A DNA stretch of 64,000 nucleotides. Source: Deltaproteobacteria bacterium. GTDB lineage: Bacteria; Myxococcota_C; UBA6777. The notes under the pieces were generated by a model. That model did no database searches. It was not told where the DNA came from and saw only the letters and a list, made by a program, of their open reading frames with translations. The stretch spans positions 36,275-100,274 of the forward strand of contig PCBK01000053.1 of the NCBI GenBank assembly GCA_002731275.1, written 5' to 3'. A program made the position numbers and the translations under genes. Numbering within the stretch: the first letter of the stretch is position 1; each line of letters opens with the position of its first letter. This document shows, piece by piece, positions 8,317 through 59,756 of this stretch.

Positions 8317-8359
8317 ACCGTCGCTCTGCTTACCACTGGCCTTCCATATATACGGACAA

Positions 8360-8640
8360 GTTTCCACTTGCAGGGAGCAGGACGAGTTTCCACTCGCAGG
8401 GAGCAGGGCGAGTTGCCACTCGCAGGGAGCAGGGCGAGTTTCCACTCGCAGGGAGCAGGGCGAGTTTCCACTCGCAGGGAGCAGGGCGAGTTGCCACTCG
8501 CCCTTACGGCTGCCGCGCTCTGCTTGGCATTGGCCTCGCACATACGGACAAGTTGGCACTTGCAGGGAGCAGGGCGAGTTGCCACTCGCCCTTACGACTG
8601 CCGCGCTCTGCTTGGCACTGGCTGCCGCGCTCTGCTTGGC
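8360..8640. repeat. non-coding tandem minisatellite, 26-bp unit GTTTCCACTCGCAGGGAGCAGGGCGA x5-6 plus degenerate longer units
   Basis: Directly abutting units without spacers; downstream of anti-sigma stop. Confidence 0.8.
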
Positions 8641-8651
8641 ATAGTGGGCTC

Positions 8652-8741
8652 GCTGCCCACACCCGCCTGGGGTTTGTTCAACCCCAGACCCCATGATGCT
8701 TACGCATCATTTATGTTGCGCCTTCGGCGCTTATTTTTTCC
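8652..8741 (+). repeat. Copy D (diverged) of structured intergenic repeat; ends in terminator-like GCGCCTTCGGCGC + TTATTTTTTCC
   Basis: Hairpin 2 carries compensatory changes (ATGATGC-TTAC-GCATCAT vs CAATGC-TCAC-GCATTG) preserving pairing; hairpin 3 identical. Confidence 0.65.
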
Positions 8742-10669: not shown

Positions 10670-11923
10670 CTATTTGATGAGTCTGAATGTTTTGGCGCCT
10701 TGCATCTTCGTGAAGCGACGTGTTGCGCCTTTCATGTTGGCGTAGGAGAGGTTGGTTTTGTGGAGTTTCGCGAATTGGAGTTTCGCGTTTCTCAGGTCAG
10801 CCCTCACAAAGCTCGCGCCGTGGCATCGAACAAATCTCATATTTGCGCCTCGCAAGGAAGCCCCATCAAAGCGTGTCTTTTGACATCGGACGTTGACCAA
10901 TTTTGTGCCAACGAGACGGGCGGAGGTTAGGTTCGCGCCTTGGAGTTTTGCGTAGGAGAGGTCTGTCTTGTTGAAGTTCGCGCCTTTGAGGTTTGCGTCT
11001 TGGAGTTTGACGTATTTGAGATCCATGTTGGAGAGGTTGGCACCGGCGAGATTGATCGCGACTTTGGGGTGTTTGAGTCTCCAGGCATTCCAAGTGTTGA
11101 CGCCTTTTCTGAGGAGTCGGAGCTGTCTTGGGTTGTACGAGGCTTTCTGGCGAGCACGGATCGCTCTCAGCGTGCGACCTCTTTTGATACGTAATACGCC
11201 TGTGTTTCTCCTCTTCATACGTCCGATACGAAGGACACGTCCTGTTTTGAGTGTGCGTGTGTTGGATGTGCGCTTGACCATGTACATCCTGGCACCTGTC
11301 AGGTTGCTTTTGGTCGGCTTGACCCCACTCATATCGGCATAAGAGAAGTTGGCGTTCTGGAGCTTCGCGAAGTGGATCTTGGCACCTCGCAGATCCGCTC
11401 TCACAAAGATCGCTTTTTGGCACCGAATAAACGTCAATTGGGCACCTTTAAGTGATGCGCCTCGGAAGTTCGCCCTCTCGCACCAGATGTGGGACATCTT
11501 TGTGTTGTGAAGTGTGGCGGCTTTGAGTGATGTTTTGTAGAGTTGGGCGCCCCACATGTCAGCGTTGCTCAGGTTGGCGCTGTCGAGGCGTGCATTTTGG
11601 AAGCGCACGTGTTTGAGCTTTGCGCGCTTCATATTGGCACCACGAAGGTCAGCACCTCGCAAATCCGCAAGTGTGAGCTTTGCGCCTGAGAGGTTGGCCC
11701 CACGTAGATTCATCTTCGCGAGTGTTGCAGAGCTCAGGTCAATGCGAGCCTTTGGATGACTCGCTCTCCATGCGTTCCACGCACTGACACCCTTTTTGAG
11801 GGTGCGTAGTTGTGTACCGCGATAGGCTGAGGCGTCTTCTGCGTACAAACCTGTCATGGCCAATGCTGCGAGTAATGCGGAATGAACGATCTGTTTCTTC
11901 ATGGGTTCTCCTTTGTGTGTCAT
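10670..11923 (-). CDS. secreted pentapeptide-repeat protein, two repeat modules separated by an Arg/Lys-rich linker
   Basis: Signal peptide MKKQIVHSALLAALAMTGLYA; dozens of A(N/D)L(S/R)GA pentapeptides. Confidence 0.85.
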   Translation of the reverse strand: MTHKGEPMKKQIVHSALLAALAMTGLYAEDASAYRGTQLRTLKKGVSAWNAWRASHPKARIDLSSATLAKMNLRGANLSGAKLTLADLRGADLRGANMKRAKLKHVRFQNARLDSANLSNADMWGAQLYKTSLKAATLHNTKMSHIWCERANFRGASLKGAQLTFIRCQKAIFVRADLRGAKIHFAKLQNANFSYADMSGVKPTKSNLTGARMYMVKRTSNTRTLKTGRVLRIGRMKRRNTGVLRIKRGRTLRAIRARQKASYNPRQLRLLRKGVNTWNAWRLKHPKVAINLAGANLSNMDLKYVKLQDANLKGANFNKTDLSYAKLQGANLTSARLVGTKLVNVRCQKTRFDGASLRGANMRFVRCHGASFVRADLRNAKLQFAKLHKTNLSYANMKGATRRFTKMQGAKTFRLIK

Positions 11924-12233: not shown

Positions 12234-12668
12234 CTCTATCAATCGTCCTCTCACGAAGTAAGCGCATGAGTATGATGTTGCATTTTCGGTAGGGTTGGGC
12301 ATTGTTGTTCGATTTTTGATGTTACATTTTTTCCGTAGGGTCGGGCCTTGTGTCCGACCTTGATGTTGTATTTGTTCGGTAGGGTCGGGCCTTGTGTCCG
12401 ATCTCAATGTTGCATTTGTTCGGTCGGATCGGGCCTTGTGTCCGATCTCAATGTTGCATTTGTTCGGTCGGATCGGGCATTGTTGTTCGATTTTTAATGT
12501 TGCATTTTCGGTAGGGTCGGGCATTGTTGTTCGATTTTTGATGTTACATTTTTTCGGTAGGGTCGGGCCTTGTGTCCGACCTCGATGTTGTATTTGTTCG
12601 GTCGGGTCGGGCCTTGTGTCCGACCTCGATGTTGTATGTCCTTTTGGCGAGAGAACCACTTACGCTCG
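12234..12668 (+). mobile_element. MITE-like element: ~20-bp terminal inverted repeats flanking an internally amplified ~50-bp tandem array (~9 units)
   Basis: TIR-like ends CAATCGTCCTCTCACGAA ... TTGGCGAGAGAACCACTTACG; internal unit GATGTTGCATTTGTTCGGTCGGATCGGGCCTTGTGTCCGATCTCAAT repeated; single-unit inverted copy at 24927-25042. Confidence 0.55.
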
Positions 12669-13394
12669 TTTTCCCTGACGCCATCACGATGTCTTGTTGG
12701 TGTCTTGGCGTTGGTGCTCATTCCCAAAAAAGAAGTCCCACAGCTCAAAAGGGCAGTACAGAAATTTTCTTCCAACGGTCAGAATCTTTTTTCTGTCAAG
12801 CTCCAGGGGCCATCTGAAGAGCGCAACCCCAAAATAAGATATCTGAAATGCTTTCAGTGTTGTAGGCTCGGTGTACAAAGTGGGCATACTGCTTGCTCTA
12901 TGTGCGGGGCGTGTTGCTCTTCTGTGTGTCGCTCATGTCGTGAATCCATAGATCACTTGTTGGTACCACATCATACCTTCAGATGGAATCTTCACACATG
13001 ATATCGATCCGACCCTCCCGAAGAACCCAAAGGACAACGGCTTTGGGAGGTGTCTGAAGAAGAGTTCTCTTGTGGTGGGTCTCAGGTACGGTCTGGGGCC
13101 AGACGCCTGTATGAGTCCACAGCCGACTCGGAGGGCGGGTGCCATGTGTTGTGATGCACATGCCGCACAAACTCTCTAACCAACAAGGAGATGTACACAA
13201 TGAGATGCTGTTACGAGTATCCGCCCTGGTTCGATATCATACAGTTCTTTGTACAAGATGCAATCCACTGATAGGATGATTTTTGCGTGTTTTCGCTTTA
13301 TAAACAAGCCAGAGAAGAGCGCTTGTTGCGGCATAAGAGATCGTATAGAGCGAAAATGTAGATACCTTTCACAGCCAAAAGAGAGATAGACAAG

Positions 13395-15941
13395 ATGGGA
13401 AAACAAGAGAAGCGCGATCTGGTATTGGCACCTGGTACATACGCTTATATGCAAGACGAAACAACCGGTGCGATCAAGACCTTTGTCGGTCCTTGTGTGA
13501 TCAACCAGACCGCGCAAGAAGTGCCCGTTCAGTACATTGCAAAGGACGGACTCTTCAAACGTTGCAGTCGCCTCGAAGAGGCCGCCTGTAAATCCCCCAT
13601 CGCTGTCGAAGGGTTCTATCTTGTACTCAAGAATCCGGTGTTACAGGATGAACTTCACCCCGATGTCGGTAGTGCAGGAAAAATCTCTCCTACACTGCAA
13701 GTTGGGCGGAAGATCAATATCCCTGGTCCCTGTATGTTCGCGTTGTGGCCTGGGCAAGACGCACAAGTGGTGCGTGGTCATAACCTTCGTTCCAATCAAT
13801 ACCTGCTCGTAAGGGTATATAACGAAGAGGAAGCGCGAAGTAACTGGGAAAAAGCTGTGATGAAGCCAGCCTCTGGCCCCGAAAGCGAAGCGGGCGAGAC
13901 GATGGCGACCGCACCTGCACCCGTGGACCTCACTGTGGGAAAAGAGCTCGTTATTAAAGGCACAGAGGTCTCTTTTTATATCCCACCCACAGGTATGAGC
14001 GTGATTCCCGAAGGTGTAGACTCCAGTCGAAAACCAATATATGTTCGCGACGCCCTGACACTCGAACGGTTGGAGTACTGTATTCTCGTCGATGAAGACG
14101 GAAACAAGCGATACGAACGAGGACCACAAGTTGTTTTCCCCAAACCTACAGAGACTTTTGTCATCCGCAAAGGATTTCAAAAGTTCCGTGCCATTGAGTT
14201 AAATGAAAATCAGGGCCTGCATATCAAGGTCATCGCACCTTACTTCGATGAGACCACTCAGACAGCGTACAAAGAGGGTGATGAATTGTTCGTCACAGGA
14301 AAAGAGACCGCGATCTATTTTCCACGCGAAGAACACTCTCTGATCTCCTACGACGGGAAATCAAAACATTTCGCCACAGCCATTCTCGCTGGAGAAGCAC
14401 GCTATATGATGGATCGGATTACCGGTGAGGTCGAGACCGTTGAGGGACCTGCGATGTTGTTGCCTGATCCAAGACACCAAGTGATCGTGAGACGTGTCCT
14501 CTCGGACAAACAAGTCACACTCTGGTATCCCGATAATGACGAAGCGTTCGAATACAACAAACATCTTCGTCAGATGCTTGGACATACCCCCACGACACGC
14601 TCTGGTGTCATCAGCGAAGGCGACTATACACGCGGTCTCCGCAGACAGAAAAAAAAGAAGTCCTCCCAGGGACAGCCTGCCGGTCAAATGGAACACTCTA
14701 TCATCGGTGAACAAGAGTTGATCGCCGACGAGTTTTCACGTGCGTCATCCTATACACAACCTCGTACTGTGATCCTGGATAATAAATTCCAGGGCGTCCC
14801 AGACATCGAAGTATGGACCGGATATGCGGTCCAGGTGATCGCCAAAGATGGGACGAGACGTGTCGTCGAAGGGCCCGCGCAGCTGTTGTTAGCTTATAAC
14901 GAAACCCTGGAAGCGCTACGGTTCTCCACTGGGTGTCCAAAAACACCCAACTCTCTCAAGGAGGCCGTCTTTTTACGTACCAAGAGCAACAAGGTGCGAG
15001 ACTGTGTCGAAGTCCGCACGCTTGACCACGTCCCCGTCGCCATCGAGCTGGAGTATAGCCTCCACTTTGAAGGCGACTCCACACGCTGGTTCTCCATCGA
15101 TAACCCCATCCAGCACCTGTGTGACCACACCAGGACGTTGCTCAAACGCGCCGTCAAAGAGGTCTCTGTCGAGGCATTCAGCGCACAATCCACCGGGCTT
15201 TTACAGGACATCCTCCTCGGCACACTCGACGACAAACAACGTCGCGCTGGCCTGCGCTTCGAACAAAATGGCATGTTTGTCAGTGAAGTCGATGTCCTCT
15301 CCGTCCGTATCCTCGACGAGAGCATCCAAAAAGTGCTGTCCCAATTCCAAAAGAAGACCGCACGCTACAGTATCGAGCAACTCGTCGCACAACGCGAACT
15401 CGAAAACACACGCGCACTTGAGCTCATCGAACAAGACAGCGCTGCCGCCAGACAAGAGACACAGCTTCGTATCCTCGCGCTCGAAGAGCAGCTGCGACAG
15501 CATCGACAAGAGGTCGCACTTCACGAGGTCCAACGTGCGCAAACACTCGAACAGGCCAAACAGGAGCAAAAACGCGAAGAGGCGCTGCTCAAACAAAAGG
15601 TCACCGAGATCGAGAACCAAACCGAACAGCTTCTGCACGCTGCGTTGATGGAACAAAAGGCCGAAGAGTTGCGCCTGGAGAAGGAAAAACTCGCGGCACA
15701 GACAGCGTCCATTGTCGAACAATCCAACGCCATCAGTCCACACCTCACGATGGCTCTCGAACGCCTCGCCGACGAAAAACTCCTGAGCGCGATGGCCAAC
15801 GGATTTGGTGAGTTTGCCGCCGCAAAAGGTGTCGGCTTGCTCGAAACAGCCAAACAATTCTTCGACTTCCTGCCTGAGCACAAGCTCCAAATCCTCCACC
15901 ACCAACACACCCCTCAACATCACGAAGAGAGCGAAGGGTAA
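13395..15941 (+). CDS. major vault protein (MVP) homolog
   Basis: 848 aa; N-terminal repeats resembling MVP repeat domains (EYCILVDEDGNKRYERGPQVVFPKPTETF; GDELFVTGKETAIYFPREEHSLI), shoulder-like segment, ~180-aa C-terminal coiled coil like the vault cap-helix. Confidence 0.7.
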   Translation: MGKQEKRDLVLAPGTYAYMQDETTGAIKTFVGPCVINQTAQEVPVQYIAKDGLFKRCSRLEEAACKSPIAVEGFYLVLKNPVLQDELHPDVGSAGKISPTLQVGRKINIPGPCMFALWPGQDAQVVRGHNLRSNQYLLVRVYNEEEARSNWEKAVMKPASGPESEAGETMATAPAPVDLTVGKELVIKGTEVSFYIPPTGMSVIPEGVDSSRKPIYVRDALTLERLEYCILVDEDGNKRYERGPQVVFPKPTETFVIRKGFQKFRAIELNENQGLHIKVIAPYFDETTQTAYKEGDELFVTGKETAIYFPREEHSLISYDGKSKHFATAILAGEARYMMDRITGEVETVEGPAMLLPDPRHQVIVRRVLSDKQVTLWYPDNDEAFEYNKHLRQMLGHTPTTRSGVISEGDYTRGLRRQKKKKSSQGQPAGQMEHSIIGEQELIADEFSRASSYTQPRTVILDNKFQGVPDIEVWTGYAVQVIAKDGTRRVVEGPAQLLLAYNETLEALRFSTGCPKTPNSLKEAVFLRTKSNKVRDCVEVRTLDHVPVAIELEYSLHFEGDSTRWFSIDNPIQHLCDHTRTLLKRAVKEVSVEAFSAQSTGLLQDILLGTLDDKQRRAGLRFEQNGMFVSEVDVLSVRILDESIQKVLSQFQKKTARYSIEQLVAQRELENTRALELIEQDSAAARQETQLRILALEEQLRQHRQEVALHEVQRAQTLEQAKQEQKREEALLKQKVTEIENQTEQLLHAALMEQKAEELRLEKEKLAAQTASIVEQSNAISPHLTMALERLADEKLLSAMANGFGEFAAAKGVGLLETAKQFFDFLPEHKLQILHHQHTPQHHEESEG

Positions 15942-16030
15942 GGCTGAGCAAATTCGCCTTTGATTCATCCTCTCTGTGTGCTATCTTTTGATCCTGATGG
16001 TCAGTTGGTTGGTCTCAATCATCAAGGCGG

Positions 16031-17428
16031 ATGGTGAAGATGGAAAAGCACATTGCGACACTGCGAGAGCTCTTCTCATTGGCCACGAGGGGAACGAAGA
16101 GCGCTTTTGCAAAGGGTGGATTTTGGTTGGAGACCGCTCCCACACATTGGAAGGACGACTTCTGCGCGTTTCTCAGACGCGCACGTCGCGAAGATCCTAC
16201 CCATTACCACGATGTCCTTGTCCCCTATTGCGAACAACATTTCCCACAGCTCCCACCCGACGCCCAAGAACTAAAAGTCCTCGACTCTCTCGACTCTTTA
16301 AAACAGTGGGTTGAGTTGGCTCCTTTTGGCTATTATCATCTGCGTCTGTCCGACGAGAAGACCCTCAAAGAACCTCTTCAGTGGTTGAAACCATTGTCCC
16401 GTGTCCGGACTCTTAGCCTTGGCTTCAGCCCCTCGACGCGTTCACTCGCGGGGGTGATTTCTTGTGGGTATCTTCAACATCTCCAACATCTTCACTTGAA
16501 CGGCTATCGGATGGACTCTGGGAGCTTACGGCACGTGATCCGGGCTCTTCCTCTCTACACATTGCGTAGTCTGCACATCAAAAACGTCAAGCTCCTCAAG
16601 CGCGATCTTCTGTTTCTCGCGAAGGCTGAGACACTGCAGGGACTTCAGTATCTTTGGTTGGACAACGCGCAAAATCTGGAGCTGCTTGGTTCGTCCAAAA
16701 CACTGGGTGCGCTTCGTTTTCTTGGGTTTGAACACACCGTTGAACGTGCTGTCGTCGATGCCTTCGCGCGCTCTTCTTGTCTGCGCCATCTACAAGGGAT
16801 CTGCCTACGCCACGTGACGCCGGCTGCATTGCGTGCGCTCGTCGATCCCCATTTGTTCCCAGAGCTGCAAGCGTTGCTCTTTGCGTCTCACTCTCTCAAC
16901 AATCACCATCTCGAAGCCATCGCCAATACATCGAGTCATGTGCTGCGTTGTTTGTACTTTCACGGCGATGGTGTGCAGAGCCAGATCGACGATGAAGGGG
17001 TCAAACGTCTCGCCTCTTCACCTGTGCTCGAAGGTCTCGAAGGCCTGTATGTTCTCGAAGAAAGATTGGATAATGAAGGTGTCGAATATCTCGCACATTC
17101 TGCGTTTCTCTCTAACTTGCGTGTGCTACAGCTTGGGGGGCGCTTTCGGGAACGAGCGCTTGAGCAGATCGCACAGACGACGACGCTCTCGCAATTACAA
17201 GCGCTGTGGTTGTTCCCGACGCGGGAGCTGCTCTCTGATAGTTATATGGCGCTCGCTTGCTCGAAGACATTGCCCAAGTCCGTGCGTCGGGATATGTTGT
17301 CATATGTCAAGAGGAAGCGAGTGGTCGAGAGGGCACGTGCTTTAGGCGTGGAGGTCACGCCAAGGTTGGACAAGCGCGCCATTCTCTCTCGTATTTGGCA
17401 GGCCCAAGAGGAAGAAGGGCAAAAGTAG
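16031..17428 (+). CDS. leucine-rich repeat protein (RNI-like LRRs), 90 bp downstream of MVP homolog
   Basis: Repeated LxxLxLxxxxLxxxxLxxL units through most of 465 aa. Confidence 0.6.
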   Translation: MVKMEKHIATLRELFSLATRGTKSAFAKGGFWLETAPTHWKDDFCAFLRRARREDPTHYHDVLVPYCEQHFPQLPPDAQELKVLDSLDSLKQWVELAPFGYYHLRLSDEKTLKEPLQWLKPLSRVRTLSLGFSPSTRSLAGVISCGYLQHLQHLHLNGYRMDSGSLRHVIRALPLYTLRSLHIKNVKLLKRDLLFLAKAETLQGLQYLWLDNAQNLELLGSSKTLGALRFLGFEHTVERAVVDAFARSSCLRHLQGICLRHVTPAALRALVDPHLFPELQALLFASHSLNNHHLEAIANTSSHVLRCLYFHGDGVQSQIDDEGVKRLASSPVLEGLEGLYVLEERLDNEGVEYLAHSAFLSNLRVLQLGGRFRERALEQIAQTTTLSQLQALWLFPTRELLSDSYMALACSKTLPKSVRRDMLSYVKRKRVVERARALGVEVTPRLDKRAILSRIWQAQEEEGQK

Positions 17429-17558
17429 GGTTCTTTTGTGCAATATCTGCGTGTCTCCGAGACTGGAAGAAAATAATCGTGGATGTTTGGTGTTGGTTAT
17501 GTTTTCCTAAGTGCATCTGTCACGATAAGGCCGCCAGAGGCAAAAAAGGAGAACATGT

Positions 17559-20500
17559 ATGCGGATGGGTCCAACAACTCTACGAGGGCGCAGACCTCTA
17601 CTTTTTGTATCGTCGTTGGTTGTATTCTTTATCGGTGTGCTCGCCTTCAGGGCGGGGGAGAGTCGGGCGAAGCCTTCACAGCCAGGTGGGATCGTCGTCT
17701 CCGTTCCCCACAGGTGGGTTGATCTGACGAAGTCTCTAGACAAAGAGGCCCGACTTCGTTCTGTTCGTCAGTTGTTTCGTGTGCAGCGCTCTGTTTCGGA
17801 AACGATCAAGCGCGTCAGAGGCTCTCTGTCACTGCAAAAGGCGTTGATTGAGCTCGTGGTGGACTCCAAACAGACCGAAAAAGACAAGGGATATGCGCTT
17901 CATCTGCTCAACAAGGCTGGGACCTACCTGAAGATCCCCGTCTCCTCACTTGTCTCTTGTCTTCGTAGTCCACGTGGCAACGTCAGGATGAACGCCGCGA
18001 GTGTTCTCGGACGACTTGGAGAAGACGCGCTCAGTGCGATCCCTGCGCTCGCGAAGCAGCTTCGTGTTGAGAAAGGGGTCATCATTCGTAAGGAGCTCCT
18101 GCGAGCGATACGGCTGATCGAGCGATATGCCTCTATCGCGTTTCATCCCCTCGTTCGTGGAAAGCAGGATACAGCTGCGACCATTCGGATTTTTGCAGAT
18201 GTCATCAAAAAAGATCCTGACACGCAGATGAAGACCCTCGCGGTCAAAGCTCTTGGGGAGCTTGACGCGCAGTGGTGGGATCACGTTCAACCTGTCTTTT
18301 TGCGGGCATTCAAGCATAAGGAACCGGACGTGCGTCGCGAGGTTCTTCGGCAGATGCGGCGTTATTTTGCCTCTCACAAGCTACTCGTGAAGGAGGCGTT
18401 GAGACTCGCGGAGCGTGACCCGAAAGAGTCCGTAGAGCGCGAAGCGATCAAGACACTCGGTTACTATCCACAATACGCCAAGCAGATCATCCCGTTGTTT
18501 CGACGGCTCTTTATGCAGGGGAATGACAAGGTTCGACAAAGTATTCTCTCTGCGAGCGATGTGCTCGGTGCAAAAGGGCGCGAGGTAATGTCATTTGCGC
18601 TGCGTGTGTACAAGGAGCGTCCTGACACAGAGAGATTGCGATTGCTTCGGTGGTTGCACGTGTTCTCCCCTGGAACACTACCCGACGCAAAAGACTGGCG
18701 CCCCTACCTGACCTCCCAACAGCTTGTCCTGCCGCTCTTTACACTTTGGAAAAAGCACAAAACGCACAGTCAAATGTTGATCCCGCTGTTGGTCTCTGTG
18801 ATTCGACATGCTTACACACAAGCTGGACTCATCGCGCTTTCATCGTGGTTGAGTGAGGTGGAGACGACAAAATATGCCGATGTGTTGTTGAAGGATATCC
18901 TCAGCCACACAAAAGGTGGGGATCGGTTGTACTTACAGCCTGCTGTGTACAAACTCTTACGTCGACTTGTCCGCGATATGAAGAGCCAAAAGGCGCTCTC
19001 CTTGTTGAAGTCCTTCATCTCCAAAAAATACGACCTTCGTTCATCTGTGTTGTTTGATCTGCTCGGTGAGCTACAGGGCTCACATGATGGCGCGGCGAAG
19101 GTGCTCGTCGAGCATCTTCGACGCAGTTGGGGGCGACCACACGAGAAGAGGCTCCACAACGCGCTTGTCAGACTCGGTAAGCAGACACCTGCGGTCGTTT
19201 TTACGCGGCTGCTCAAGGGCCTGAAGGACGTCCCGACAAAGTACCGCCAACGCTACCTGTCATCACTCGCGAAGGTCGCGACAGACAAGAAGCAATACCA
19301 AGTCAAACTTCCACACAATGCGTTCTCCGTGTTGGAGAGAAAACAGCTCTCGGGGATGTGTGCGCAGCTCGTCGTGATGAAGAAAAGTCTGGAGGATGAT
19401 CTTTCCGGGATGGCGTGTCTTCGTGCGATTGGGGAGCTCAAACGAGTAAAGGAGGAGTTGTCGACGTCGTTACATGAGCGTAATCGCAAGTCGACACTTG
19501 CGTTCTTGCGGATGTTGCGGCTGGGGAAACAGGAGGCGTCGTGGGCGTTGCCGCTCGTGTTGTGGGCGCTAAAGAAAAATTACAACACAAGGCTCAGGAA
19601 ACAGGCGGTCCGGACTTTGGGATACTTGGAGGCGGTGAACAAAGCCGTACTTGATGCGATTCATCCGATCTCGTATTCGACTTACAAAAAAGTGCTACGT
19701 AGGGCGCTACGTCGGATGGCTGGTCATCCGAAAGGGGTAGAGGTGCTCATCGCACGTCTTCGTGTGGAGACGAAGGTGAGTATGATCAACAACATCATCG
19801 TTGGGCTTCGTTGGCACGCGAAGGGCAATTTGGCGATCCAAGAGGTGTTGAAGGAGCTGCTCTCTCACCGCAGTAAAAGTGTCCGTGACTATGCTGTGTG
19901 GGCGCTAAAGTACGCTGGTCTTGATGCAGATCTGGCGATGGACATTGGGTTGACGCTCGTACAACGTGATCGTGCTTCGTGGGTGCGTCAGGACGCGGCG
20001 AGTCTGCTTGGTCGTCAAAGTCCGGCGTTTATGACAAAGCGACGTGAACGGGCGAGTCTGTTGGCGAGGTTGTTTGCCAAAGAGCGCGATATCAAGGTGA
20101 AGAAGCGTCTGTATTGGTCGCTTCATCGTCTTCGGAATTACGTCGAGCGAGCTGATCTGAGGGCGTACAGAGAGGTCATGCACAAGGCAAAGGACAAGCA
20201 ACTCTTGTTAAACGCTTTGCGGACACTCGGTAGAAAGGGGGGATACTGGAAGCAGACGCTGCCTGCGATGCGTCGTATGCAAGGGCGCGCGTTGGTCTTG
20301 GATGTCGAGCAGAAACGTCGCGACACAATCGCTCGTTGGTCTGGAAAGGTCGATCTGTGGACGCTTGAACAGCTCGCGGAGCAGCTGCGTACAAAGCGCA
20401 CAAAGAAGACGTTCTCCAAAAAGCTCCTCAAACGTATTGGTCACATGCGTTCGGACTCCTTGGTCGCCAACCACGCGGTCATGCATGTGCTGCGTTTTGG

Positions 20501-21671
20501 ATCGAGGGCGCAACGCTTGAACGCGCTGGACGCGGGATATCACCTTGGGTTTCGATTGAGACGATACGCGCCGGTCCTGTTCAAGATGGTGCAACAAGAG
20601 AAAGACCCTCACATTCGTCGCTTTTTGGCGTGGCGTTTTGCTGAGAGCAGTGGCACAAAACATTCTTACATCAAGCCATTGCGAGCGCTGTTACGTCGGG
20701 AAAAGGAGCCCAAAGTCTTGGTCCCTCTGCTGTGGTCGCTTGGTAAGCAGGGCGCGCGCGCTGCCGAGGCTGTCGATGACATCTTGTATGTCCTCTCCAC
20801 ACAGAGATATTGGATGACCCGATACGAGTGTGTCTGGGCGCTTGGACGTATCGGAGCAAAAGCCTCGAAGGTCTATCCTGTTTTGTTGCGCCTGCTCACC
20901 AAGAACCACAAGCTCCCTGTGCGCAGGGAGGCAGCCCATGTGTTGTCAAAGCTCAAGCTCACGCCCAAACAGGTCAACAAAGTGGGCAGCAAACTCGTGC
21001 GTGTGCTCTCCTATGAGAAGCACTATGACGTGCGACTTCGGATCTTGTCGACGTTGCTCACGCTCAAGTGGAAGCCGATGTTTTTCCGCATTGTGATGAG
21101 GGGTCATCTGCTCACCGAACCTGATCGGGGGCTTCGTTGGGTGATTCGGTATCTTCTGGTCTTTTTGGGCGGAAAGGATGTGGCGCTACACAAGCTCTTA
21201 TGTGAGCAGGCTGTCGCAGCAAAGCGTCCTGAAAATCGATGGATCGCGATATGGTTGTTGGGGATGTTCAAGGACAAAGCGCACGCACAAAAGAGCGCGA
21301 AGGTGCTCTCCGATGTCTTGCGAAAGGAGCGACTCCGGTACATCCGAAGAGAGGCTGCGCGTGTCTTAGGGGATTTGACGTCTGCGTCGAAAATCGCGAC
21401 CGCTGCTCTCGTGAAGGGGCTATGGGATCCTGCTGAGACTGTTCGTATGATGGTGTTGCGTCGTTTGCGTGAACACGGGAAGCAGGCGTTGTTTGCGTTG
21501 CCGTTGATCAAGGCATTCAAACGCGACCATTGGTACGGAGTGCGTCGTCAAGCTGACCTTACCTGGAAGGCATTGTCTGTACTTCAGCCGGCGACAAAAC
21601 CTGCGAGTCGCCCGACGACAAAACCTGCAAGCCGTCCAACGACAAAACCTGCAAGTCGACCTGTAAAGTGA
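17559..21671 (+). CDS. giant HEAT/PBS-lyase-like repeat protein with N-terminal membrane anchor and C-terminal PATKPASRPT x3 tail
   Basis: N-terminal hydrophobic helix (LLFVSSLVVFFIGVLAF); >15 HEAT-like units with VRREAxxxLxxL motifs. Confidence 0.7.
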   Translation: MRMGPTTLRGRRPLLFVSSLVVFFIGVLAFRAGESRAKPSQPGGIVVSVPHRWVDLTKSLDKEARLRSVRQLFRVQRSVSETIKRVRGSLSLQKALIELVVDSKQTEKDKGYALHLLNKAGTYLKIPVSSLVSCLRSPRGNVRMNAASVLGRLGEDALSAIPALAKQLRVEKGVIIRKELLRAIRLIERYASIAFHPLVRGKQDTAATIRIFADVIKKDPDTQMKTLAVKALGELDAQWWDHVQPVFLRAFKHKEPDVRREVLRQMRRYFASHKLLVKEALRLAERDPKESVEREAIKTLGYYPQYAKQIIPLFRRLFMQGNDKVRQSILSASDVLGAKGREVMSFALRVYKERPDTERLRLLRWLHVFSPGTLPDAKDWRPYLTSQQLVLPLFTLWKKHKTHSQMLIPLLVSVIRHAYTQAGLIALSSWLSEVETTKYADVLLKDILSHTKGGDRLYLQPAVYKLLRRLVRDMKSQKALSLLKSFISKKYDLRSSVLFDLLGELQGSHDGAAKVLVEHLRRSWGRPHEKRLHNALVRLGKQTPAVVFTRLLKGLKDVPTKYRQRYLSSLAKVATDKKQYQVKLPHNAFSVLERKQLSGMCAQLVVMKKSLEDDLSGMACLRAIGELKRVKEELSTSLHERNRKSTLAFLRMLRLGKQEASWALPLVLWALKKNYNTRLRKQAVRTLGYLEAVNKAVLDAIHPISYSTYKKVLRRALRRMAGHPKGVEVLIARLRVETKVSMINNIIVGLRWHAKGNLAIQEVLKELLSHRSKSVRDYAVWALKYAGLDADLAMDIGLTLVQRDRASWVRQDAASLLGRQSPAFMTKRRERASLLARLFAKERDIKVKKRLYWSLHRLRNYVERADLRAYREVMHKAKDKQLLLNALRTLGRKGGYWKQTLPAMRRMQGRALVLDVEQKRRDTIARWSGKVDLWTLEQLAEQLRTKRTKKTFSKKLLKRIGHMRSDSLVANHAVMHVLRFGSRAQRLNALDAGYHLGFRLRRYAPVLFKMVQQEKDPHIRRFLAWRFAESSGTKHSYIKPLRALLRREKEPKVLVPLLWSLGKQGARAAEAVDDILYVLSTQRYWMTRYECVWALGRIGAKASKVYPVLLRLLTKNHKLPVRREAAHVLSKLKLTPKQVNKVGSKLVRVLSYEKHYDVRLRILSTLLTLKWKPMFFRIVMRGHLLTEPDRGLRWVIRYLLVFLGGKDVALHKLLCEQAVAAKRPENRWIAIWLLGMFKDKAHAQKSAKVLSDVLRKERLRYIRREAARVLGDLTSASKIATAALVKGLWDPAETVRMMVLRRLREHGKQALFALPLIKAFKRDHWYGVRRQADLTWKALSVLQPATKPASRPTTKPASRPTTKPASRPVK

Positions 21672-21860
21672 GCGGTCAAGTGCAGGGGGGAAGGGGTCAT
21701 TTTCTAGGAGAGTGCCGCCAGCCATAGGAAAAAAACCACAAAAAAGTAACCCGATCTGTTCTCTGTGCAATATACCTATGTGGAAATAGAGATTGAATAC
21801 GATGGAGTCGCATGAAAAGAGGCTCTTGAGATGATCTGGTAGTCAAAAGGATATAAAGAT

Positions 21861-24743
21861 ATGCAGAAGAGAGTGATGTGTTTGGTGTGGATGGTGTTGT
21901 TGTTGACGATGTCGATCTTATCGGCATGTGGTCCGACGACATCTGGTCGTGAACAATCTTCCGAGTCCCACCAAGAGGCACACAAAGAGCTGAGCAAAGA
22001 AGCGGCTCCAGTGGACGCTGGAGAGGGGAGTGGGGGAGCGAAAGAGACGACGACACCTGATGCGCAGGGGCAGGAGGGCACGACACCAGAACAAGGTTGT
22101 CCAAACGCCTGTACGAATGAAGGTGATGAGCGATGTGACGGTCAAAAACGTCTGCTGTGTGTGAAGAAGCAAGGTTGCCTTACGTGGGAAGCCATCCAGG
22201 AGTGTCCAGACGGCACGACATGTCAGCCCAACGCTTGTGTCTCGACATGTAAAGGCGAGTGTTCGGAAGGGGATCGGATCTGTCAATCGGATCGTCCTAT
22301 GCTTTGTGTTGTCGTCGATGGTTGCCCTGTCTGGAAGGAAGAGAAGGCATGTGCACAAGGCGAAGTCTGCTCTGGTGGTCTCTGTACACAACAGTGTCAA
22401 TCGGAGTGTAGTCTTGGTGATATGCGATGTTTTGGACGCAACTCGTTATCTCATTGTGTGCGTGCACAGAACGGATGTTTGCAGTGGGGGACGCCAAAAA
22501 CCTGTAGTGATGGACACATCTGTGATGGGAATAAGTGTGTGCCTTCCTGTACGGATGTGTGTGTGCCTGGAGATAAGCAATGTACACAAGGCGGCGTGAG
22601 TCTTTGTGTGCGTGGGCAAGATGGTTGCGCTGTGTGGGGGAAGGCTTCGAGCTGTCCCACAGGTCAAACCTGTTCAGGTGGTGCCTGTACACAGAGCTGT
22701 CAGGATGTGTGTAAGGCGAATGAGACTCGCTGTTCTGGCCAAGCTGTCCAGACTTGTTTGCGACAGAGCAATGGTTGTTTGGATTGGGGACTTCCTGCCG
22801 CGTGTCCAACACAACGGACTTGTCAGGCTGGAAAGTGTGTGCTCTCATGTACCTCTACGTGTAAGAGTGGAGCTGTCCGATGTCTGGGGGATTTGATCCA
22901 GTCATGTGGCCTTCAAGCGAGTGGTTGTCTTGATTGGGCTGGTGCCAAAGCCTGCCCTGCTGGTGAGGCGTGTGTGAGCGGAGCCTGTAAGAAGGTCTGT
23001 CAACAAGTCTGCCAACAAGGTGATGTCCGTTGTGATGCCGTTGGTGTCAGCCGCTGCGTAAAAGATAGCGGTGGATGCTGGACGTGGGGAGCGAGCTCCG
23101 CGTGCGCACAAGGGAAGGTCTGTAAAGCAGGCGCTTGTGTTGACAAGACTGGCGCAGGGTATGGGGCAACGTGTACTGGGAACAGCGACTGTAAGAGCGG
23201 TTTTTGTTTGAAGACCTCGACGTCTTCGTTTTGTTCAAAGCTTTGCAGCTCCGACACGGATTGTGGCACAGGGAAAGTATGTCAGTCCACATCGATTCAA
23301 AACAAACTCCAACGTCTCTGTGTTGTCCCCGGTAGTATCGAAGCTTGTGCTGTGAACGGTGATTGTTCCGCGTACACCAGATGTGTCAACAAAACATGCG
23401 CTGTCAGTTGTTCTGAAAACCGCGACTGTTGGTCGTCTTACTACTGTGACAATGGGACATGCAAAGGGCTTGGTGCCAGCACGTGCTCCTCCAACAAGGA
23501 ATGTCCCGGTGGGTACTCCTGTAAGTCCGGAAAGTGCAAAACTTCGTGCTATTACGCCTCGGACTGTCAACCGACCTTTCATTGTGACAGCAGCAAACGG
23601 CAGTGTTATCCCTTACCTCCGGGACAATGCTACTACGATGTAAATTGCCCTAACAACTTCGCATGTAAATCCAAGACGTGTTTGACGAGCTGTCAGGAGA
23701 ACAGAGATTGCCACCAAGGTTACTATTGCAACGCTGGTGCTTGCAAAAAGTTGAGCGCTGATACGTGTACCTCCAACAGTGATTGTCCTGGTGGATACTC
23801 CTGTAAATCTGGTAAGTGCAAAACTTCGTGTTATTATGCTTCGGACTGTCAGCCCAAACACCACTGCGACAGTAGCCGAAGACAGTGTTATCCATTGAAG
23901 CCGGGACAATGTTACTATGATGTCAATTGCCCTAACAACTTCGCGTGCAAGTCCAATGTCTGCCTGACGAGTTGTAAAGAGAACAGAGATTGCCACCAGG
24001 GGTACTACTGTGGCGCTGGTACCTGCAAAAAGTTGAGCGCTGATACATGCACCTCCAACAGTGATTGTCCCGGTGGGTACTCCTGTAAGTCCGGAAAGTG
24101 CAAGACCTCATGTTACTACGCTTCGGACTGCCAACCGACCTTTCATTGCAGCAGCAGCCGAAGACAGTGTTATCCCTTGAATCCAGGGCAATGCTACTAC
24201 GATGTGAATTGTCCCAACAACTTCGCATGTAAATCCAACGTATGTCTGACGAGTTGCAAAGAGAACAGGGATTGTTACCAGGGTTACTATTGCAGCGCTG
24301 GTGCCTGCAAAAAGTTGAGCGCCGATGTGTGTACATCCAACAGTGATTGTCCCGGTGGGTATTCTTGTAAGTCCGGAAAGTGCAAAACATCGTGCTACTA
24401 TGTCTCCGATTGCCAGCCGACCTTCCATTGCAGCAGCAGCCGAAGACAGTGTTATCCCTTGAATCCAGGGCAATGTTATTACGACGCGAATTGCCCCAAC
24501 AACTTCGCGTGTAAGTCCAATGTCTGCCTGACGAGTTGCAAAGAGAACAGGGATTGCCACCAGGGTTACTATTGTGGCGCGGGGACCTGCAAAAAGTTGA
24601 GCGCTGATGTGTGTACGTCCAGCAGTGATTGTCCCGGTGGATATGCCTGCAAGTCCGGAAAGTGCAAGACTTCGTGCTACTATGTCTCCGATTGTGAGTC
24701 ACCAGCCAAGTGCGACGGGAGTCGCCGTCAATGCTATCAGTGA
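21861..24743 (+). CDS. lipoprotein with Cys-rich repeats: ~12 short C-x-G-x-C modules then five near-identical ~97-aa Cys-rich modules
   Basis: Lipoprotein signal MQKRVMCLVWMVLLLTMSILSAC; DNA-level ~291-bp tandem repeats 23400-24700. Confidence 0.75.
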   Translation: MQKRVMCLVWMVLLLTMSILSACGPTTSGREQSSESHQEAHKELSKEAAPVDAGEGSGGAKETTTPDAQGQEGTTPEQGCPNACTNEGDERCDGQKRLLCVKKQGCLTWEAIQECPDGTTCQPNACVSTCKGECSEGDRICQSDRPMLCVVVDGCPVWKEEKACAQGEVCSGGLCTQQCQSECSLGDMRCFGRNSLSHCVRAQNGCLQWGTPKTCSDGHICDGNKCVPSCTDVCVPGDKQCTQGGVSLCVRGQDGCAVWGKASSCPTGQTCSGGACTQSCQDVCKANETRCSGQAVQTCLRQSNGCLDWGLPAACPTQRTCQAGKCVLSCTSTCKSGAVRCLGDLIQSCGLQASGCLDWAGAKACPAGEACVSGACKKVCQQVCQQGDVRCDAVGVSRCVKDSGGCWTWGASSACAQGKVCKAGACVDKTGAGYGATCTGNSDCKSGFCLKTSTSSFCSKLCSSDTDCGTGKVCQSTSIQNKLQRLCVVPGSIEACAVNGDCSAYTRCVNKTCAVSCSENRDCWSSYYCDNGTCKGLGASTCSSNKECPGGYSCKSGKCKTSCYYASDCQPTFHCDSSKRQCYPLPPGQCYYDVNCPNNFACKSKTCLTSCQENRDCHQGYYCNAGACKKLSADTCTSNSDCPGGYSCKSGKCKTSCYYASDCQPKHHCDSSRRQCYPLKPGQCYYDVNCPNNFACKSNVCLTSCKENRDCHQGYYCGAGTCKKLSADTCTSNSDCPGGYSCKSGKCKTSCYYASDCQPTFHCSSSRRQCYPLNPGQCYYDVNCPNNFACKSNVCLTSCKENRDCYQGYYCSAGACKKLSADVCTSNSDCPGGYSCKSGKCKTSCYYVSDCQPTFHCSSSRRQCYPLNPGQCYYDANCPNNFACKSNVCLTSCKENRDCHQGYYCGAGTCKKLSADVCTSSSDCPGGYACKSGKCKTSCYYVSDCESPAKCDGSRRQCYQ

Positions 24744-24926
24744 GAGACATGTAAGGCTGTCGGATGGAAAAAAGCGAAGACAAGAGGGCAGTGGATGGGG
24801 CCTCAGGCAAGGCATGAGGAGAAGGCATGGCAGGGCCATGTCGACGACAAATCACAAAGCCTGTGGCTTCAGCAACAACCTTCTGTCTTCGTCTCATTTT
24901 CCGTATCCTTTTTTCCATCCGATGGC

Positions 24927-25042
24927 CTAAGTGGTCCTCTCGCGAAAAAGACATACAACATAGAGGTCGGACACAAGGCCCGACCCTACGGGGGAAATGC
25001 AATATCATGCTCATGCGCTTACTTCGCGAGAGGACCGCTTAG
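24927..25042 (-). mobile_element. Single-unit copy of the MITE-like element, inverted relative to 12234-12668
   Basis: Perfect-ish 20-bp TIRs CTAAGTGGTCCTCTCGCGAA / TTCGCGAGAGGACCGCTTAG around one 50-bp unit. Confidence 0.6.
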
Positions 25043-25184
25043 GCTGCTGCAAGACATAATCTCTCGCTTGAGGAAGCACTCTCTCGCTTGTGACTTTTTC
25101 TCACCACACATTAAAACTATTTTTGTGAGCCTTCGTTGAAAATGGATGTCCGCATCAATCAATCTGTTCGACGGAGAAGAGCTC

Positions 25185-27230
25185 ATGAAACGTACCTCAC
25201 CCAGCCCAATCCGAAAAAAGAAGACACACGGGATTGTCCGTATCTTCTTGGTTTTGTCGTTTGTCCTCTCTTTGTTTGGCGTGGTCTCTTTGGTCTCTGC
25301 AAAACAGCCAAAGAGCTCAGCCTCAAAGCACAAAACATCTCCACGCAAGAAAACGAAACTCTCTCATCGTCGCCTCAAGAGGTTTTCTTCCAACAAAGAG
25401 TTTCGTGCGTACATCTTGCGCTTAAAGTCCCTCTACAAGTCACGGCGTCGACGCTATCGGAGCCGCAGACGCAAGCGTTCTATAGGCGGCTTGTTGGGAG
25501 CGCCTACGAAGTCACTCTCAGCCCCTCCCACACCTTCTTCAGCATCATCAAAGACGTCAGGTGGGACGCGGAATGACAAGATCACCAACAACCAGATCCA
25601 GGGCGTGGATGAAGGTGATATCGTAAAGGTGATCGGTCGTTATCTCGTGATCTTACGACGTGGTCGTTTGTTCTCCGTAAGGATTGAGGACGGCAAGAAG
25701 ACGACGTTGCTCCCTGTGGGACGTGCCGATGCACAGGCGCCCAATCTGAAGCGAGGTGGCTGGTACGATGAGATGCTCGTGTACAAACGTCGCATCGTCG
25801 TGATTGGTTACAACTACAATCACAGTAGCACGGAGATCAATCTGTTTCGGCTCGGAAAACGCGGAAAGCTCCACTTCCAGACCAGTCATTTTTTGCGTTC
25901 AAACGATTACTACTCTTCGAGAAACTACGCGAGTCGTTTGATCGGCAGCAAACTCGTCTTTTACATGCCCTTTCGTCTGCGTTATCAATATCATTCATCT
26001 TATAAGCTCCCAATGCCGAGCGTCGCGCGCTTTGGTGTACGCAAAAATGGTCTGCGTTGGAAGAAGATCCTGTTCCCCACACGCATCTATCGACCTGTCC
26101 AATTTACGCTCAATCCTACACTGCACACAGTCGTTCAGTGCAATCTGGCCCGTCGGAATCTTCGATGCTCGGCGCGTGCTGTGATTGGGTCTTCATCCAG
26201 GACCTTCTTTGTATCACGTGACTCTGTGTACATCTGGGCAGGGGCTGATTACATCCCGTGGTGGGCGCCTTCGTACATGAGAAAGCGCAAGAGAGATGCC
26301 TTCTTGTACCGTATGTCTCTGCACAGCAGTCGTGTCTCTGCTGTCCGCGTGCACGGTCAACCTATCGATCAATTCTCCTTCCATGACTCTGGAGATGGTC
26401 ATCTCAACTTTTTGCTCTCCTCACGTTCTGGCGGGGATTGGATGTGGAGCGCAGAGCGAGCCAAAGGGAAGCTGGCGTTTTTGCGATTCCCCAAACGTTA
26501 CTTCTCTTCTCGCGCTGGTATCATCGGCAAAAAGCGCTATACGCCGATCCCTGGGCCGAAGTATGGCTCGATTCACAATCGCTTTATTGGTCGTCAGCTC
26601 TACTGGGGAGGCGGTCAGGGGTGGTATGCGAGACGACATGGTCATCAGAACAAGGCGTGGTTGCTCGATATCAAGAAGCCCAAAACAGTGAACACGCTTC
26701 AGCTCAAGCACAGCGTCGAGCGGATTGAGGCGATGGGGCGAAATGCCGTGCTCATCGGTCACGCTGGTCGCTCTTTGCACTTCACTTCTTTTGCCTCTGG
26801 TGTGAACCCTACGCCCCAAGGTCACTATGAGATCAAGAACGCCAGCCAAGGGGAGACGAGAAGTCATGGCTTCTTCTTTTTGCCAGGTAAGCATAACAAA
26901 GGGCTGTTGGGTTTACCTGTTCGCAGACGCGCTGGTGGGTCTCGACAATTGCGTCATGGTTCTGCGGGCGTCGTCTTTTTGCGTGTGGATGCCGATCTGC
27001 ACTTTCATTCTTTGGGGAGTCTTCAGGCGAAAAACAAGCGCGTCAACGATGCGTGTCGTTTTTCGTGTGTGGATTGGTACGGGAATGCACGTCCGATCTT
27101 CATGCGAGGGCGGATCTTTGCGTTGCTTGGGTACGAGCTTGTTGAGGGGACATTGATGAAGAAGGCGATCAAGGAGAAGACACGTACGACTTACTTCCTC
27201 AACGCGCCTGCACAGATCGCCAGAGATTGA
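25185..27230 (+). CDS. secreted beta-propeller-domain protein (archaeal/bacterial Beta_propel-like)
   Basis: Signal peptide; TNNQIQGVDEGDIVKVIGRYLVIL motif typical of this family. Confidence 0.5.
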   Translation: MKRTSPSPIRKKKTHGIVRIFLVLSFVLSLFGVVSLVSAKQPKSSASKHKTSPRKKTKLSHRRLKRFSSNKEFRAYILRLKSLYKSRRRRYRSRRRKRSIGGLLGAPTKSLSAPPTPSSASSKTSGGTRNDKITNNQIQGVDEGDIVKVIGRYLVILRRGRLFSVRIEDGKKTTLLPVGRADAQAPNLKRGGWYDEMLVYKRRIVVIGYNYNHSSTEINLFRLGKRGKLHFQTSHFLRSNDYYSSRNYASRLIGSKLVFYMPFRLRYQYHSSYKLPMPSVARFGVRKNGLRWKKILFPTRIYRPVQFTLNPTLHTVVQCNLARRNLRCSARAVIGSSSRTFFVSRDSVYIWAGADYIPWWAPSYMRKRKRDAFLYRMSLHSSRVSAVRVHGQPIDQFSFHDSGDGHLNFLLSSRSGGDWMWSAERAKGKLAFLRFPKRYFSSRAGIIGKKRYTPIPGPKYGSIHNRFIGRQLYWGGGQGWYARRHGHQNKAWLLDIKKPKTVNTLQLKHSVERIEAMGRNAVLIGHAGRSLHFTSFASGVNPTPQGHYEIKNASQGETRSHGFFFLPGKHNKGLLGLPVRRRAGGSRQLRHGSAGVVFLRVDADLHFHSLGSLQAKNKRVNDACRFSCVDWYGNARPIFMRGRIFALLGYELVEGTLMKKAIKEKTRTTYFLNAPAQIARD

Positions 27231-27790: not shown

Positions 27791-28100
27791 CTGTTCTAGG
27801 TATATTCGTGGATGTTTGGCTGAAAAAGCGAATGCTGTATGTGCTTAGCTCACAAAGGATTTTGTTTTTTGCCAGGGATTTTTTTGATATGTGACACGCT
27901 TTGTCATACTCATGGAGTAGATTGATTTGTGTCCGAAAGGAACAGTGAAAGAGTGTGTCTGAGAAGACACCCCCTTTTGTTTGCACAAAGCAATGAAGCT
28001 TTCTCGAAGAGATACAGATTTCGACGTTTGAATGATGCAGCGTCATTCGGGTACTCTAAGCCAATCATGGTTCACAAGGAAAGCTATTCTGGGTTTGCCA

Positions 28101-28187
28101 GCCACCGGTGACGGTGCTGCCCGCGCCGCAGCTGGCGCAACTCAGGATAGCCGAGTTTGCGGCGCGGGCAGCACCGTCACCGGTGGC
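28101..28187. repeat. perfect 30-bp inverted repeat (GCCACCGGTGACGGTGCTGCCCGCGCCGCA / complement) with 27-nt spacer
   Basis: Arms 28101-28130 and 28158-28187 are exact reverse complements. Confidence 0.85.
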
Positions 28188-28905
28188 GCAAACCTGTGAG
28201 CCTTCCATGTCCCAAGAGATGTCAGGAAATCGACGAGAAACGCTCTCTTTGTTTCACAACCAATAGACACATTCTTTCGCTCTCCCTCGGCTTTATGGCC
28301 GACGGAACGATGATCTTTGACAAAAGAAGAACAGAACTTTTTGAGTAGGCTCCTTGAACAGGTGTGCGGCTTTGCCGTGCTGTTCACTGTTTCGACAGTT
28401 TTCTCCGTTGACTCATTTGAGATACGAATGCATAGGAGAGAGGAATCCTACAAGTGCTATAAGAAGCCGAGAGCGACCCCTATAGGGAATGTCCCAGCGG
28501 GGGGTTGTACGCGTCTGCGTCCATCATGGATGACGAGAGAGGTGACGAATACCATGTCGCCCTACTCCCATGCGGTGATGGCATGTGATGCAGGCCATCC
28601 GAAGCGCAGGAGAACAGTGCAGCCAGGACATCCCGCTGGATGCCCTATAATGAAGACCAGGTATCCACCATGACAAAATCGTGCACAGAGCAAGGGCGCG
28701 ATGATCCACTATGTCAACAAAAGGCTATGTGTCTAAAAAGTAAGGTGAAAGACGCGTGAGTATTTCAGGGAAACAGCGTCCTCGTGAGCGATGGTCTCAG
28801 GTTGGTAGGGTGCAGCTTCATCATCCTGAGCGAATTGTCTCCAAAGAGTAGGAATTTTACGCTACTTAAAAAGTTCTGTTTTTCTTCTTGTTCTCCCACA
28901 AGAAT

Positions 28906-50712: not shown

Positions 50713-50975
50713 GGCTTTGCTCCGAATATCGATAGATTGTGGTGGTTGATTGTATTGGATGTGTGGAAGAAAGAAAAGGTCATCCTTTGTGGGGCTACAA
50801 CGGATGAGGTGGTCAAGAGGTTCAAAGTTTTTGGGGATTGAACTTCCTGTGCCCTTTTGCGTATGATGTAGATGACGGTAGGTTATTGATGGTGGCCAGT
50901 GGTGCACAAAGACCTATGGGAATCGGGATTGTGTATCCCACGTCTCGGCTTCTTCTGTAGCGACCGTCACGTTGT

Positions 50976-59382: not shown

Positions 59383-59756
59383 GATCTGCCTCTTGTGTCG
59401 TGAGGGTGGTATGTTTTGTTGTCTGGAGGTATCCTCAGACATTCACACCAAAGCACGCAAGTGCGCGCTCGTGTGAAACATGAGGGTATCATACAACATG
59501 TTGAACGGAATGAATATATTTTGGCTGTATGTGTCGCTCTATGAGACCTATGAGGGTGTTTCTTGTCATCTCTAGTGGGGAGGGTTGAGGAAGAGAATGG
59601 TTGACAGATCGTCAAGCTCTTGCCATTCTCTTGGCGATTTGCGTTGTGGGATCGACGTACAGTCCTGTCTTTGAGGTGCGTGGAGGTGCCCATTTGCTCG
59701 GGATATTCGTCGGTTTTGTGACATTGTGGAGACACATTTGTTTGAGGAGAAGATCG

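Follow-up and report, generated by a model that had tools for sequence, protein, structure and literature searches.

Eukaryotic vaults are closed particles with a shell of major vault protein (MVP), 39-fold in each half-vault and a 78-mer in total, and their partners are vault RNA, TEP1 and PARP4. As a kind of protein, bacterial MVP has been known since 2013: Daly et al. (2013, PMC3762200) listed ten bacterial homologs, including those of Corallococcus, Plesiocystis (two copies), Saprospira, Microscilla and Herpetosiphon, and predicted that they dock like vault monomers. Sokolskyi (2019, bioRxiv 10.1101/872010) discussed MVP homologs in Myxococcales, Cytophagales and Oscillatoriales, Enhygromyxa is among the hosts already described in these two studies, and a 2023 preprint reports MVPs in phages. 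According to a passage of PMC13404743 that cites Burroughs and Aravind (2016), a link between RtcR, RtcB and MVP has also been published. Our literature search found no report of a bacterial vault particle, and the locus analysed here bears on the question of whether bacteria build vault-like cages and what for. It lies in a 64-kb stretch of contig PCBK01000053.1 (hereafter the window, whose positions are used throughout), in which a gene at 13395-15941 on the + strand encodes an MVP homolog of 848 aa.

We find that this product is a genuine full-length MVP homolog with complete architecture, a divergent addition to the bacterial family that is set in a non-conserved context. The explanation that we prefer, with a probability of roughly 0.8, is that the gene is a chromosomal, vertically maintained relative of eukaryotic MVP and its product a probable cage former, that the neighbouring genes are unrelated to it, and that the miniature inverted-repeat transposable elements (MITEs) on either side are independent of it.

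A full-length MVP homolog with complete architecture

A sequence-only reading of the window had called four consecutive open reading frames (ORFs) and assigned the first of them to MVP. All four were recovered on the + strand with exactly the same coordinates and lengths, and the first is organised as follows.

13395-15941, + strand: MVP homolog, 848 aa, cytoplasmic (Pfam, family profile and Foldseek)
13395-14669, + strand: N-terminal MVP beta-repeat array, residues 1 to ~425, approximately R1-R8 (AlphaFold2 and Foldseek)
14658-14786, + strand: Lys-rich linker, predicted disordered, residues 422-464, its distal part conserved in the family
14829-14963, + strand: last MVP repeat (Pfam Vault_3), residues 479-523, E=4e-7
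14988-15317, + strand: MVP shoulder domain, SPFH-like, residues 532-641 (Pfam; predicted local distance difference test score, pLDDT, 85-92)
15318-15827, + strand: long alpha-helix resembling the MVP cap helix, residues 642 to ~811 (DSSP)

The assignment is borne out by MVP-specific repeat and shoulder matches in Pfam, in a family profile and in Foldseek. In the Pfam search, MVP_shoulder (PF11978) matches residues 532-641 with 73 bits against a cut-off of 25 (E=2.6e-20), Vault_3 matches residues 479-523 with 30.5 bits against a curated cut-off of 28.8, and a weak match to PF01505 covers residues 269-311. The shoulder and Vault_3 domains are both present in all 28 aligned homologs. Because a phmmer search of the PDB sequences with the 848-aa protein alone gave no match, a family profile was needed. 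The profile of 28 homologs retrieves rat, human and rabbit MVP at E=1e-33 and aligns residues 469-778 co-linearly with residues 465-803 of rat MVP, that is, with the last repeat, the shoulder and the cap helix; further weak matches fall in the N-terminal repeats.

We then compared two AlphaFold2 models with the PDB by Foldseek, one of the full-length protein based on the 28-sequence alignment and one of residues 1-474 based on 120 homologs. The full-length model reaches a pLDDT above 80 only in the C-terminal half (residues 470-720), with values of about 40 in the N-terminal half, and the N-terminal model has a pLDDT of 76.5. MVP structures rank first for both. With the full-length model, MVP chains occupy the first 12 places (E=1.7e-21 to 2.8e-17), while with the N-terminal model all 16 matches at E<=1e-3 are MVP, the best of them being the crystal structure of murine MVP R1-R7 (E=3.8e-12 over about 400 columns) and the best non-MVP structure following at E=0.23. 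DSSP places helices at residues 642-780 and 782-811 of the model, directly after the shoulder. These correspond to the heptad-rich C-terminus of about 180 aa with which the sequence-only reading had ended its MVP-like domain order, and that order is thus confirmed. The matches extend well beyond SPFH and coiled-coil proteins, and the predicted fold is consistent with that of MVP.

The N-terminus of the protein aligns with the consensus of the 28-homolog alignment from residue 1, indicating that the start codon is right. No hydrophobic or transmembrane segment was found in the protein. The window MVP therefore has about nine beta-repeats, an SPFH-like shoulder and a cap helix of about 140-170 residues in the order found in rat MVP and at nearly the same coordinates, and its relation to eukaryotic MVP is at the level of orthologs.

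The linker at residues 422-464 has a pLDDT below 50 in both models. In the family alignments a Lys-rich segment (RRQKKKKSS...) is followed by a motif that is near-invariant in bacterial MVPs, DEFSRAS.YTQPRT..LD.KFQG.P, and the two together follow the helical insertion of repeat 8 and precede the last repeat. This region may represent a conserved element for binding or one that faces the lumen.

Family size, hosts and RtcB/RtcR neighbours

Bacterial MVP homologs had been called rare in the sequence-only reading, which does not hold. With the window protein as query, a word-indexed search found over 6640 clusters (90% identity), the best matches being 50-73% identical and carrying the same two Pfam domains; among the names of the matches are many entries labelled 'major vault protein' (JGI) and metagenome-assembled genomes (MAGs) of Kofleriaceae, Myxococcales and Deltaproteobacteria (NCBI). 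In an exhaustive search of 1.84 billion representatives of 50%-identity clusters, 553 proteins, mostly from Myxococcota, reach E<=1e-30 and 1045 reach E<=1e-3. These results show that the bacterial MVP family is far larger in metagenomes than a published statement on it suggests.

An alignment-based scan of one genome per species, in which patterns from a single protein had given no loci, yielded 111 MVP loci. Nearly all belong to Myxococcota (Kofleriaceae, Haliangiales, Nannocystaceae and Polyangia), with a few in Sericytochromatia, Riflebacteria, Wallbacteria and one Achromatium bin, and several of the genomes carry two MVP paralogs. Taken together, the scan and a neighbour-joining tree show that MVP occurs widely in Myxococcota and with a largely lineage-coherent distribution. 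In this tree the main Myxococcota clades do not include the window protein, which has a long branch; its nearest database relatives are 41-57% identical in Myxococcota and up to 73% identical among metagenome proteins.

The host itself appears to be a deep-branching uncultured lineage allied to Myxococcota, as suggested by its SpoT protein, which has no relative above 56% identity besides that of its own strain and whose named matches are Myxococcota proteins at 44-46%. The GC content of the host is about 52%, and the presence of its MITE in marine metagenomes, described below, suggests that it is marine.

To characterize the gene neighbourhoods, all ORFs within 7 kb of MVP were clustered for 80 loci. 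The sole recurrent neighbours are RtcB, RtcR and Ser/Thr kinases: an RtcB RNA ligase gene stands immediately upstream of MVP on the same strand in 10 loci, a gene for the sigma-54 activator RtcR is nearby in 8, and Ser/Thr kinase genes, which are ubiquitous in those genomes, are nearby in 10. Pfam confirms the order RtcR, RtcB, MVP in loci L021, L024 and L003, from Kofleriaceae and Myxococcales MAGs, where rtcB precedes MVP and rtcR is divergent (L021:7011-12445, L024:6921-12451 and L003:8765-12424). The Rtc-linked loci fall mostly within one MVP clade of the neighbour-joining tree, and many of the genomes have a second, unlinked paralog. This clade is also the most similar to the window protein, at 49-57% identity. 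Neither RtcB nor RtcR was found near MVP in the window or in the relatives of 62-73% identity. As a separate observation, the window holds an RNA ligase of the ATP-dependent type (PF09414), unrelated to RtcB, at 49921-50907 on the minus strand, 34 kb from MVP.

By analogy with the eukaryotic protein and its SPFH relatives, the window MVP most likely self-assembles through lateral contacts between repeats and through a C-terminal helical barrel, which would give rise to a large cytoplasmic cup or cage, soluble and homo-oligomeric. Its role is probably that of a stress- or RNA-damage-related sequestration device or scaffold, since rtcB operons controlled by RtcR contain the bacterial MVP genes of one clade. 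For the window gene a role in RNA repair would be an extrapolation, because the gene has no RtcB or RtcR neighbour and lies on a long branch outside the linked clade.

Flanking elements, neighbouring genes and competing explanations

The sequence surrounding the MVP gene contains the following features.

12245-12668, + strand: MITE copy 1, degenerate, its interior made of ~8.2 tandem 44-bp units
12669-13394, + strand: non-coding gap upstream of MVP, 726 bp of unique sequence
16031-17428, + strand: divergent RNI-type leucine-rich repeat (LRR) protein, 465 aa, an orphan (sub-threshold Pfam match and paralog similarity)
17559-21671, + strand: HEAT-repeat protein, 1370 aa, opening with a signal or anchor segment and ending in a tail of 8-aa repeats
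21861-24743, + strand: Cys-rich repeat lipoprotein, 960 aa, with a lipobox and five 94-aa repeats
24927-25045, minus strand: MITE copy 2, canonical, of a single unit, its terminal inverted repeats 19 bp long

The inverted MITE-like copies noted in the sequence-only reading are indeed two inverted copies of one element, with zero expected by chance. A 21-nt core of the element occurs in 92 marine metagenome stretches (prefixes MDTC, MDTD and CEUG), and the whole element was present at 87-95% identity in all 80 loci fetched from among them. When 27 copies were aligned, the consensus was about 113 bp long and bounded by perfect 19-bp terminal inverted repeats, TAAGTGGTCCTCTCGCGAA ... TTCGCGAGAGGACCACTTA. 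Beyond these repeats the similarity falls sharply, and the flanks suggest a possible short TA- or TAA-like duplication, which overlaps the palindromic ends of the element. The flanking element is therefore a bona fide MITE of a dispersed multi-copy family. Each 44-bp unit within copy 1 carries a hairpin, GGTCGG-N9-CCGACC, and the array comprises about 8.2 units in the window (12274-12634) versus about 3 in a sister strain (L084:1400-1610), so that it is a variable-number tandem repeat.

These copies raise the question of whether the 12.8-kb block between them is a composite mobile element that brought in MVP by horizontal transfer, which we consider decidedly unlikely. The inverted copies of one MITE family do stand exactly at the block borders, and additional copies are sparse: related contigs have 12 sites in 3.9 Mb and 656 kb of flanks have 1, which puts the chance of a second copy within 13 kb at about 5-10%, on a measured density that is an underestimate because many matches lie at contig ends, where assemblies break at the repeat. 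On the other hand, the GC (0.52-0.54) and GC3, the GC content at third codon positions (0.52-0.62), of the four genes are within the range of the surrounding housekeeping genes, and MVP, as shown above, is largely lineage-coherent in Myxococcota. Pfam scans of the window proteins revealed no transposase either within the block or close to it, the outer end of copy 1 is degenerate, the outer flanks differ, and no matching target duplication was found outside the block. Comparison with the sister strain revealed no presence/absence polymorphism of the block but only the variation of the 44-bp array. Other dispersed repeat families are likewise present in the intergenic regions of the window. Given the native composition, the lack of a transposase, the unmatched flanks and the other repeats nearby, we treat the MITE copies as two independent insertions and not as borders of a functional or mobile unit.

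Several repeat families are indeed held by the intergenic DNA of this lineage. A dispersed repeat of about 180 bp (24749-24931), which begins 6 bp past the Cys-rich stop codon and runs up to MITE copy 2, has matches of 76-93% identity in several marine metagenome loci; in locus L160 a repeat of this type again lies about 100 bp beyond a match to the Cys-rich repeat protein. At 8359-8501 there is a 26-bp tandem repeat (5.5 copies, 95% matches), next to which another dispersed repeat of about 180 bp (8546-8731) is common to five MITE-bearing metagenome loci, and a repeat of about 220 bp at 28012-28231 is also shared with metagenome loci.

The sequence-only reading had further proposed a vault-like system, made up of MVP and LRR or of the entire four-gene block. 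Its description of the individual neighbours was accurate. The gap between MVP and the LRR gene, given as 90 bp, is 89 bp, and is followed by gaps of 130 bp (LRR to HEAT) and 189 bp (HEAT to Cys-rich). The HEAT protein, described as membrane-anchored, has eight HEAT_2 stretches (Pfam) and an N-terminal hydrophobic segment, and the 960-aa lipoprotein has the lipobox LSAC, 146 Cys residues and DNA repeats of 282 bp. The RNI-type LRR label is supported by a bona fide LRR_6 protein encoded at 1322-2635, to which the LRR protein is 33% identical (E=8e-12). This paralog lies 14 kb away with no MVP beside it, indicating that the LRR family is locally expanded and not specific to MVP. Against 5.8 billion proteins the LRR protein matched only the copy of its own strain and one further protein, weakly. 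We also screened for defence systems with PADLOC, and the sole match, a repeat-driven OloA hit on the HEAT protein without a passing stretch, was rejected.

A dedicated vault-like compartment with the neighbours as partners or cargo is, in our view, very unlikely. The shared strand, the three short gaps and the lack of an intrinsic terminator directly behind MVP would fit such an arrangement, as would its conservation in the sister strain; this metagenome contig, L084, is the only one with the same gene order as the window and is 98.7% identical in DNA, i.e. of the same species, so its synteny carries no weight. Beyond it, homologs of the LRR, HEAT and Cys-rich proteins, and of the beta-propeller protein (gene at 25146-27230) and the GNAT protein, were found beside MVP in 0 of 80 loci (7-10 kb; tblastn at E<=1e-5, phmmer at E<=0.01), and those of the first three in 0 of 3 close relatives of 62-73% identity. 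Downstream of MVP one 62% homolog (P0005) has an MgtE gene and another (P0003) has small ORFs of no known family, while the contig of the 73% homolog (P0002) stops directly after MVP and its upstream genes differ from those of the window. In concordance with this, tblastx detected no synteny between the window and these relatives beyond MVP, the ECF-sigma neighbourhood included. The products also belong to different compartments: the HEAT and Cys-rich proteins are taken to be extracytoplasmic because of the signal or anchor segment and the lipobox, and neither an export signal nor a hydrophobic segment was found in the MVP and LRR proteins. The absent co-occurrence thus already largely refutes a common system. 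We judge that the LRR protein is not part of an MVP system, and the LRR, HEAT and Cys-rich genes appear from sequence comparison to be unrelated, lineage-specific neighbours of MVP. It is highly improbable that MVP and LRR are co-transcribed with the LRR protein as a lineage-specific vault adaptor or cargo, in the manner of TEP1 and PARP4 in eukaryotes; if true, this would mean a bacterial vault with a dedicated minor component.

That the 848-aa protein is an SPFH/band-7 scaffold of membrane microdomains or a TolA-like coiled coil, and not a vault shell, is very unlikely: its shoulder is SPFH-like, 4 of the 28 homologs weakly match Pfam Band_7, and HflK/C, prohibitin, stomatin and flotillin follow the MVP chains at about 1e-7 in the Foldseek search with the full-length model, but MVP structures outscore these SPFH proteins by 14 orders of magnitude, the N-terminal repeat array of about 470 residues matches MVP only, the protein is free of membrane segments, and its length and domain order are those of rat MVP.

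The region upstream of MVP gives few clues to its expression. A pentapeptide-repeat gene (10670-11923, minus strand) is divergent from MVP, with 1.47 kb of intergenic DNA between them. Of the untranslated leader of about 700 bp postulated from the sequence, the gap stands, at 726 bp; its status as a leader is conjectural, no promoter having been located. In a search for genes resembling vault RNA or Y RNA, Rfam gave no match in the window at the gathering score, and at E<=1 the upstream 1.5 kb gave only a chance match to SorX. No tRNA and no sigma-70-like promoter site on the + strand were found in the 726-bp gap, and its predicted RNA structure did not differ significantly from shuffled controls (fold z=-1.2). 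The gap is not conserved, the corresponding regions of the 62-73% relatives being about 220-240 bp long.

As MVP in relatives is often under the sigma-54 activator RtcR, we also searched for a sigma-54 promoter. The candidate at 12882-12897, GGGCATACTGCTTGCT, fits the -24 GG / -12 GC spacing (GG-N10-GC) about 500 bp upstream of MVP, and was rejected as matches with two mismatches number 26 in the window versus 37 expected. In addition, inspection by eye revealed an ORF of 23 codons, MRCCYEYPPWFDIIQFFVQDAIH, at 13185-13271, with a consensus Shine-Dalgarno sequence, AAGGAG, 9 nt before the ATG. It is kept in the sister strain with one I-to-V change and could be either a chance ORF or a leader peptide.

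The wider window is ordinary chromosome, with genes for RelA/SpoT, RlmN, phosphatidylserine decarboxylase, acyl-CoA synthetase, an extracytoplasmic function (ECF) sigma factor, a DsbA-like protein and Ser/Thr kinases, one of which is fused to an FGE-sulfatase domain. It also encodes, at 55648-59442 on the minus strand, a large repetitive secreted protein of 1264 aa with a match to the Xlink (extracellular link) domain; its Cys- and Asp-rich modules correspond to long tandem repeats in the DNA (105 to 318 bp).

Four points weigh against the explanation that we prefer, a vertically maintained, probable cage former among unrelated neighbours. The shared strand, the gaps of 89, 130 and 189 bp and the lack of a clear terminator after MVP mean that MVP and LRR may be co-transcribed. 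The MVP models are monomers and silent on stoichiometry, and assembly is argued by analogy. The window MVP has no RtcB or RtcR neighbour and lies outside the RtcB-linked clade. Finally, 12.3 kb separates the MITE copies, somewhat less than the density measured for extra copies in related contigs (about 1 per 0.3-0.65 Mb) would suggest.

Comparison with known vaults and cages

The locus provides a divergent MVP from an uncultured marine lineage and shows the nine-repeat architecture conserved far from the cultured myxobacteria. It offers no new genetic handle, given that the neighbours are lineage-specific and that the RtcB/RtcR link, already in the literature, does not occur at this locus. For experiments, MVP-bearing cultured myxobacteria, for example Corallococcus, Plesiocystis and Enhygromyxa, offer better entry points.

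Compared with the SPFH cage formers (HflK/C, prohibitin, flotillin and stomatin), the window protein shares an SPFH fold and a long helix of the kind from which they build a closed cap. It differs from them in having a repeat array, of about 470 residues, and in the absence of a membrane segment such as the one that anchors them. With the RtcR-RtcB-MVP operons it shares the MVP family, their clade being the one most similar to it; the difference is in the context, since the gene upstream in the window is the divergent pentapeptide-repeat gene 1.47 kb away. The bacterial MVP homologs described so far belong to the same family and have the same Pfam architecture, while the window MVP stands on a long branch and comes from an uncultured marine host with a GC content of 52%.

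The eukaryotic vault ribonucleoprotein differs in its partners: within the 64 kb of the window there is no vault RNA (Rfam), and a scan of 27 window proteins revealed no TEP1/TROVE, vWA or PARP4-like domain. Eukaryotic MVP is known as particles, the window protein from its gene and from monomer models alone. Relative to rat and human MVP (PDB 4V60, 4HL8 and 9BW5), the window protein is about 15-20% identical in structural alignments, its cap-ring region is not conserved, and it ends in a His-rich tail. Despite these differences, it has the same domain order and nearly the same length (848 versus 861 aa), with the last repeat at about residues 470-520, the shoulder at about 530-640 and the cap helix from about 645.

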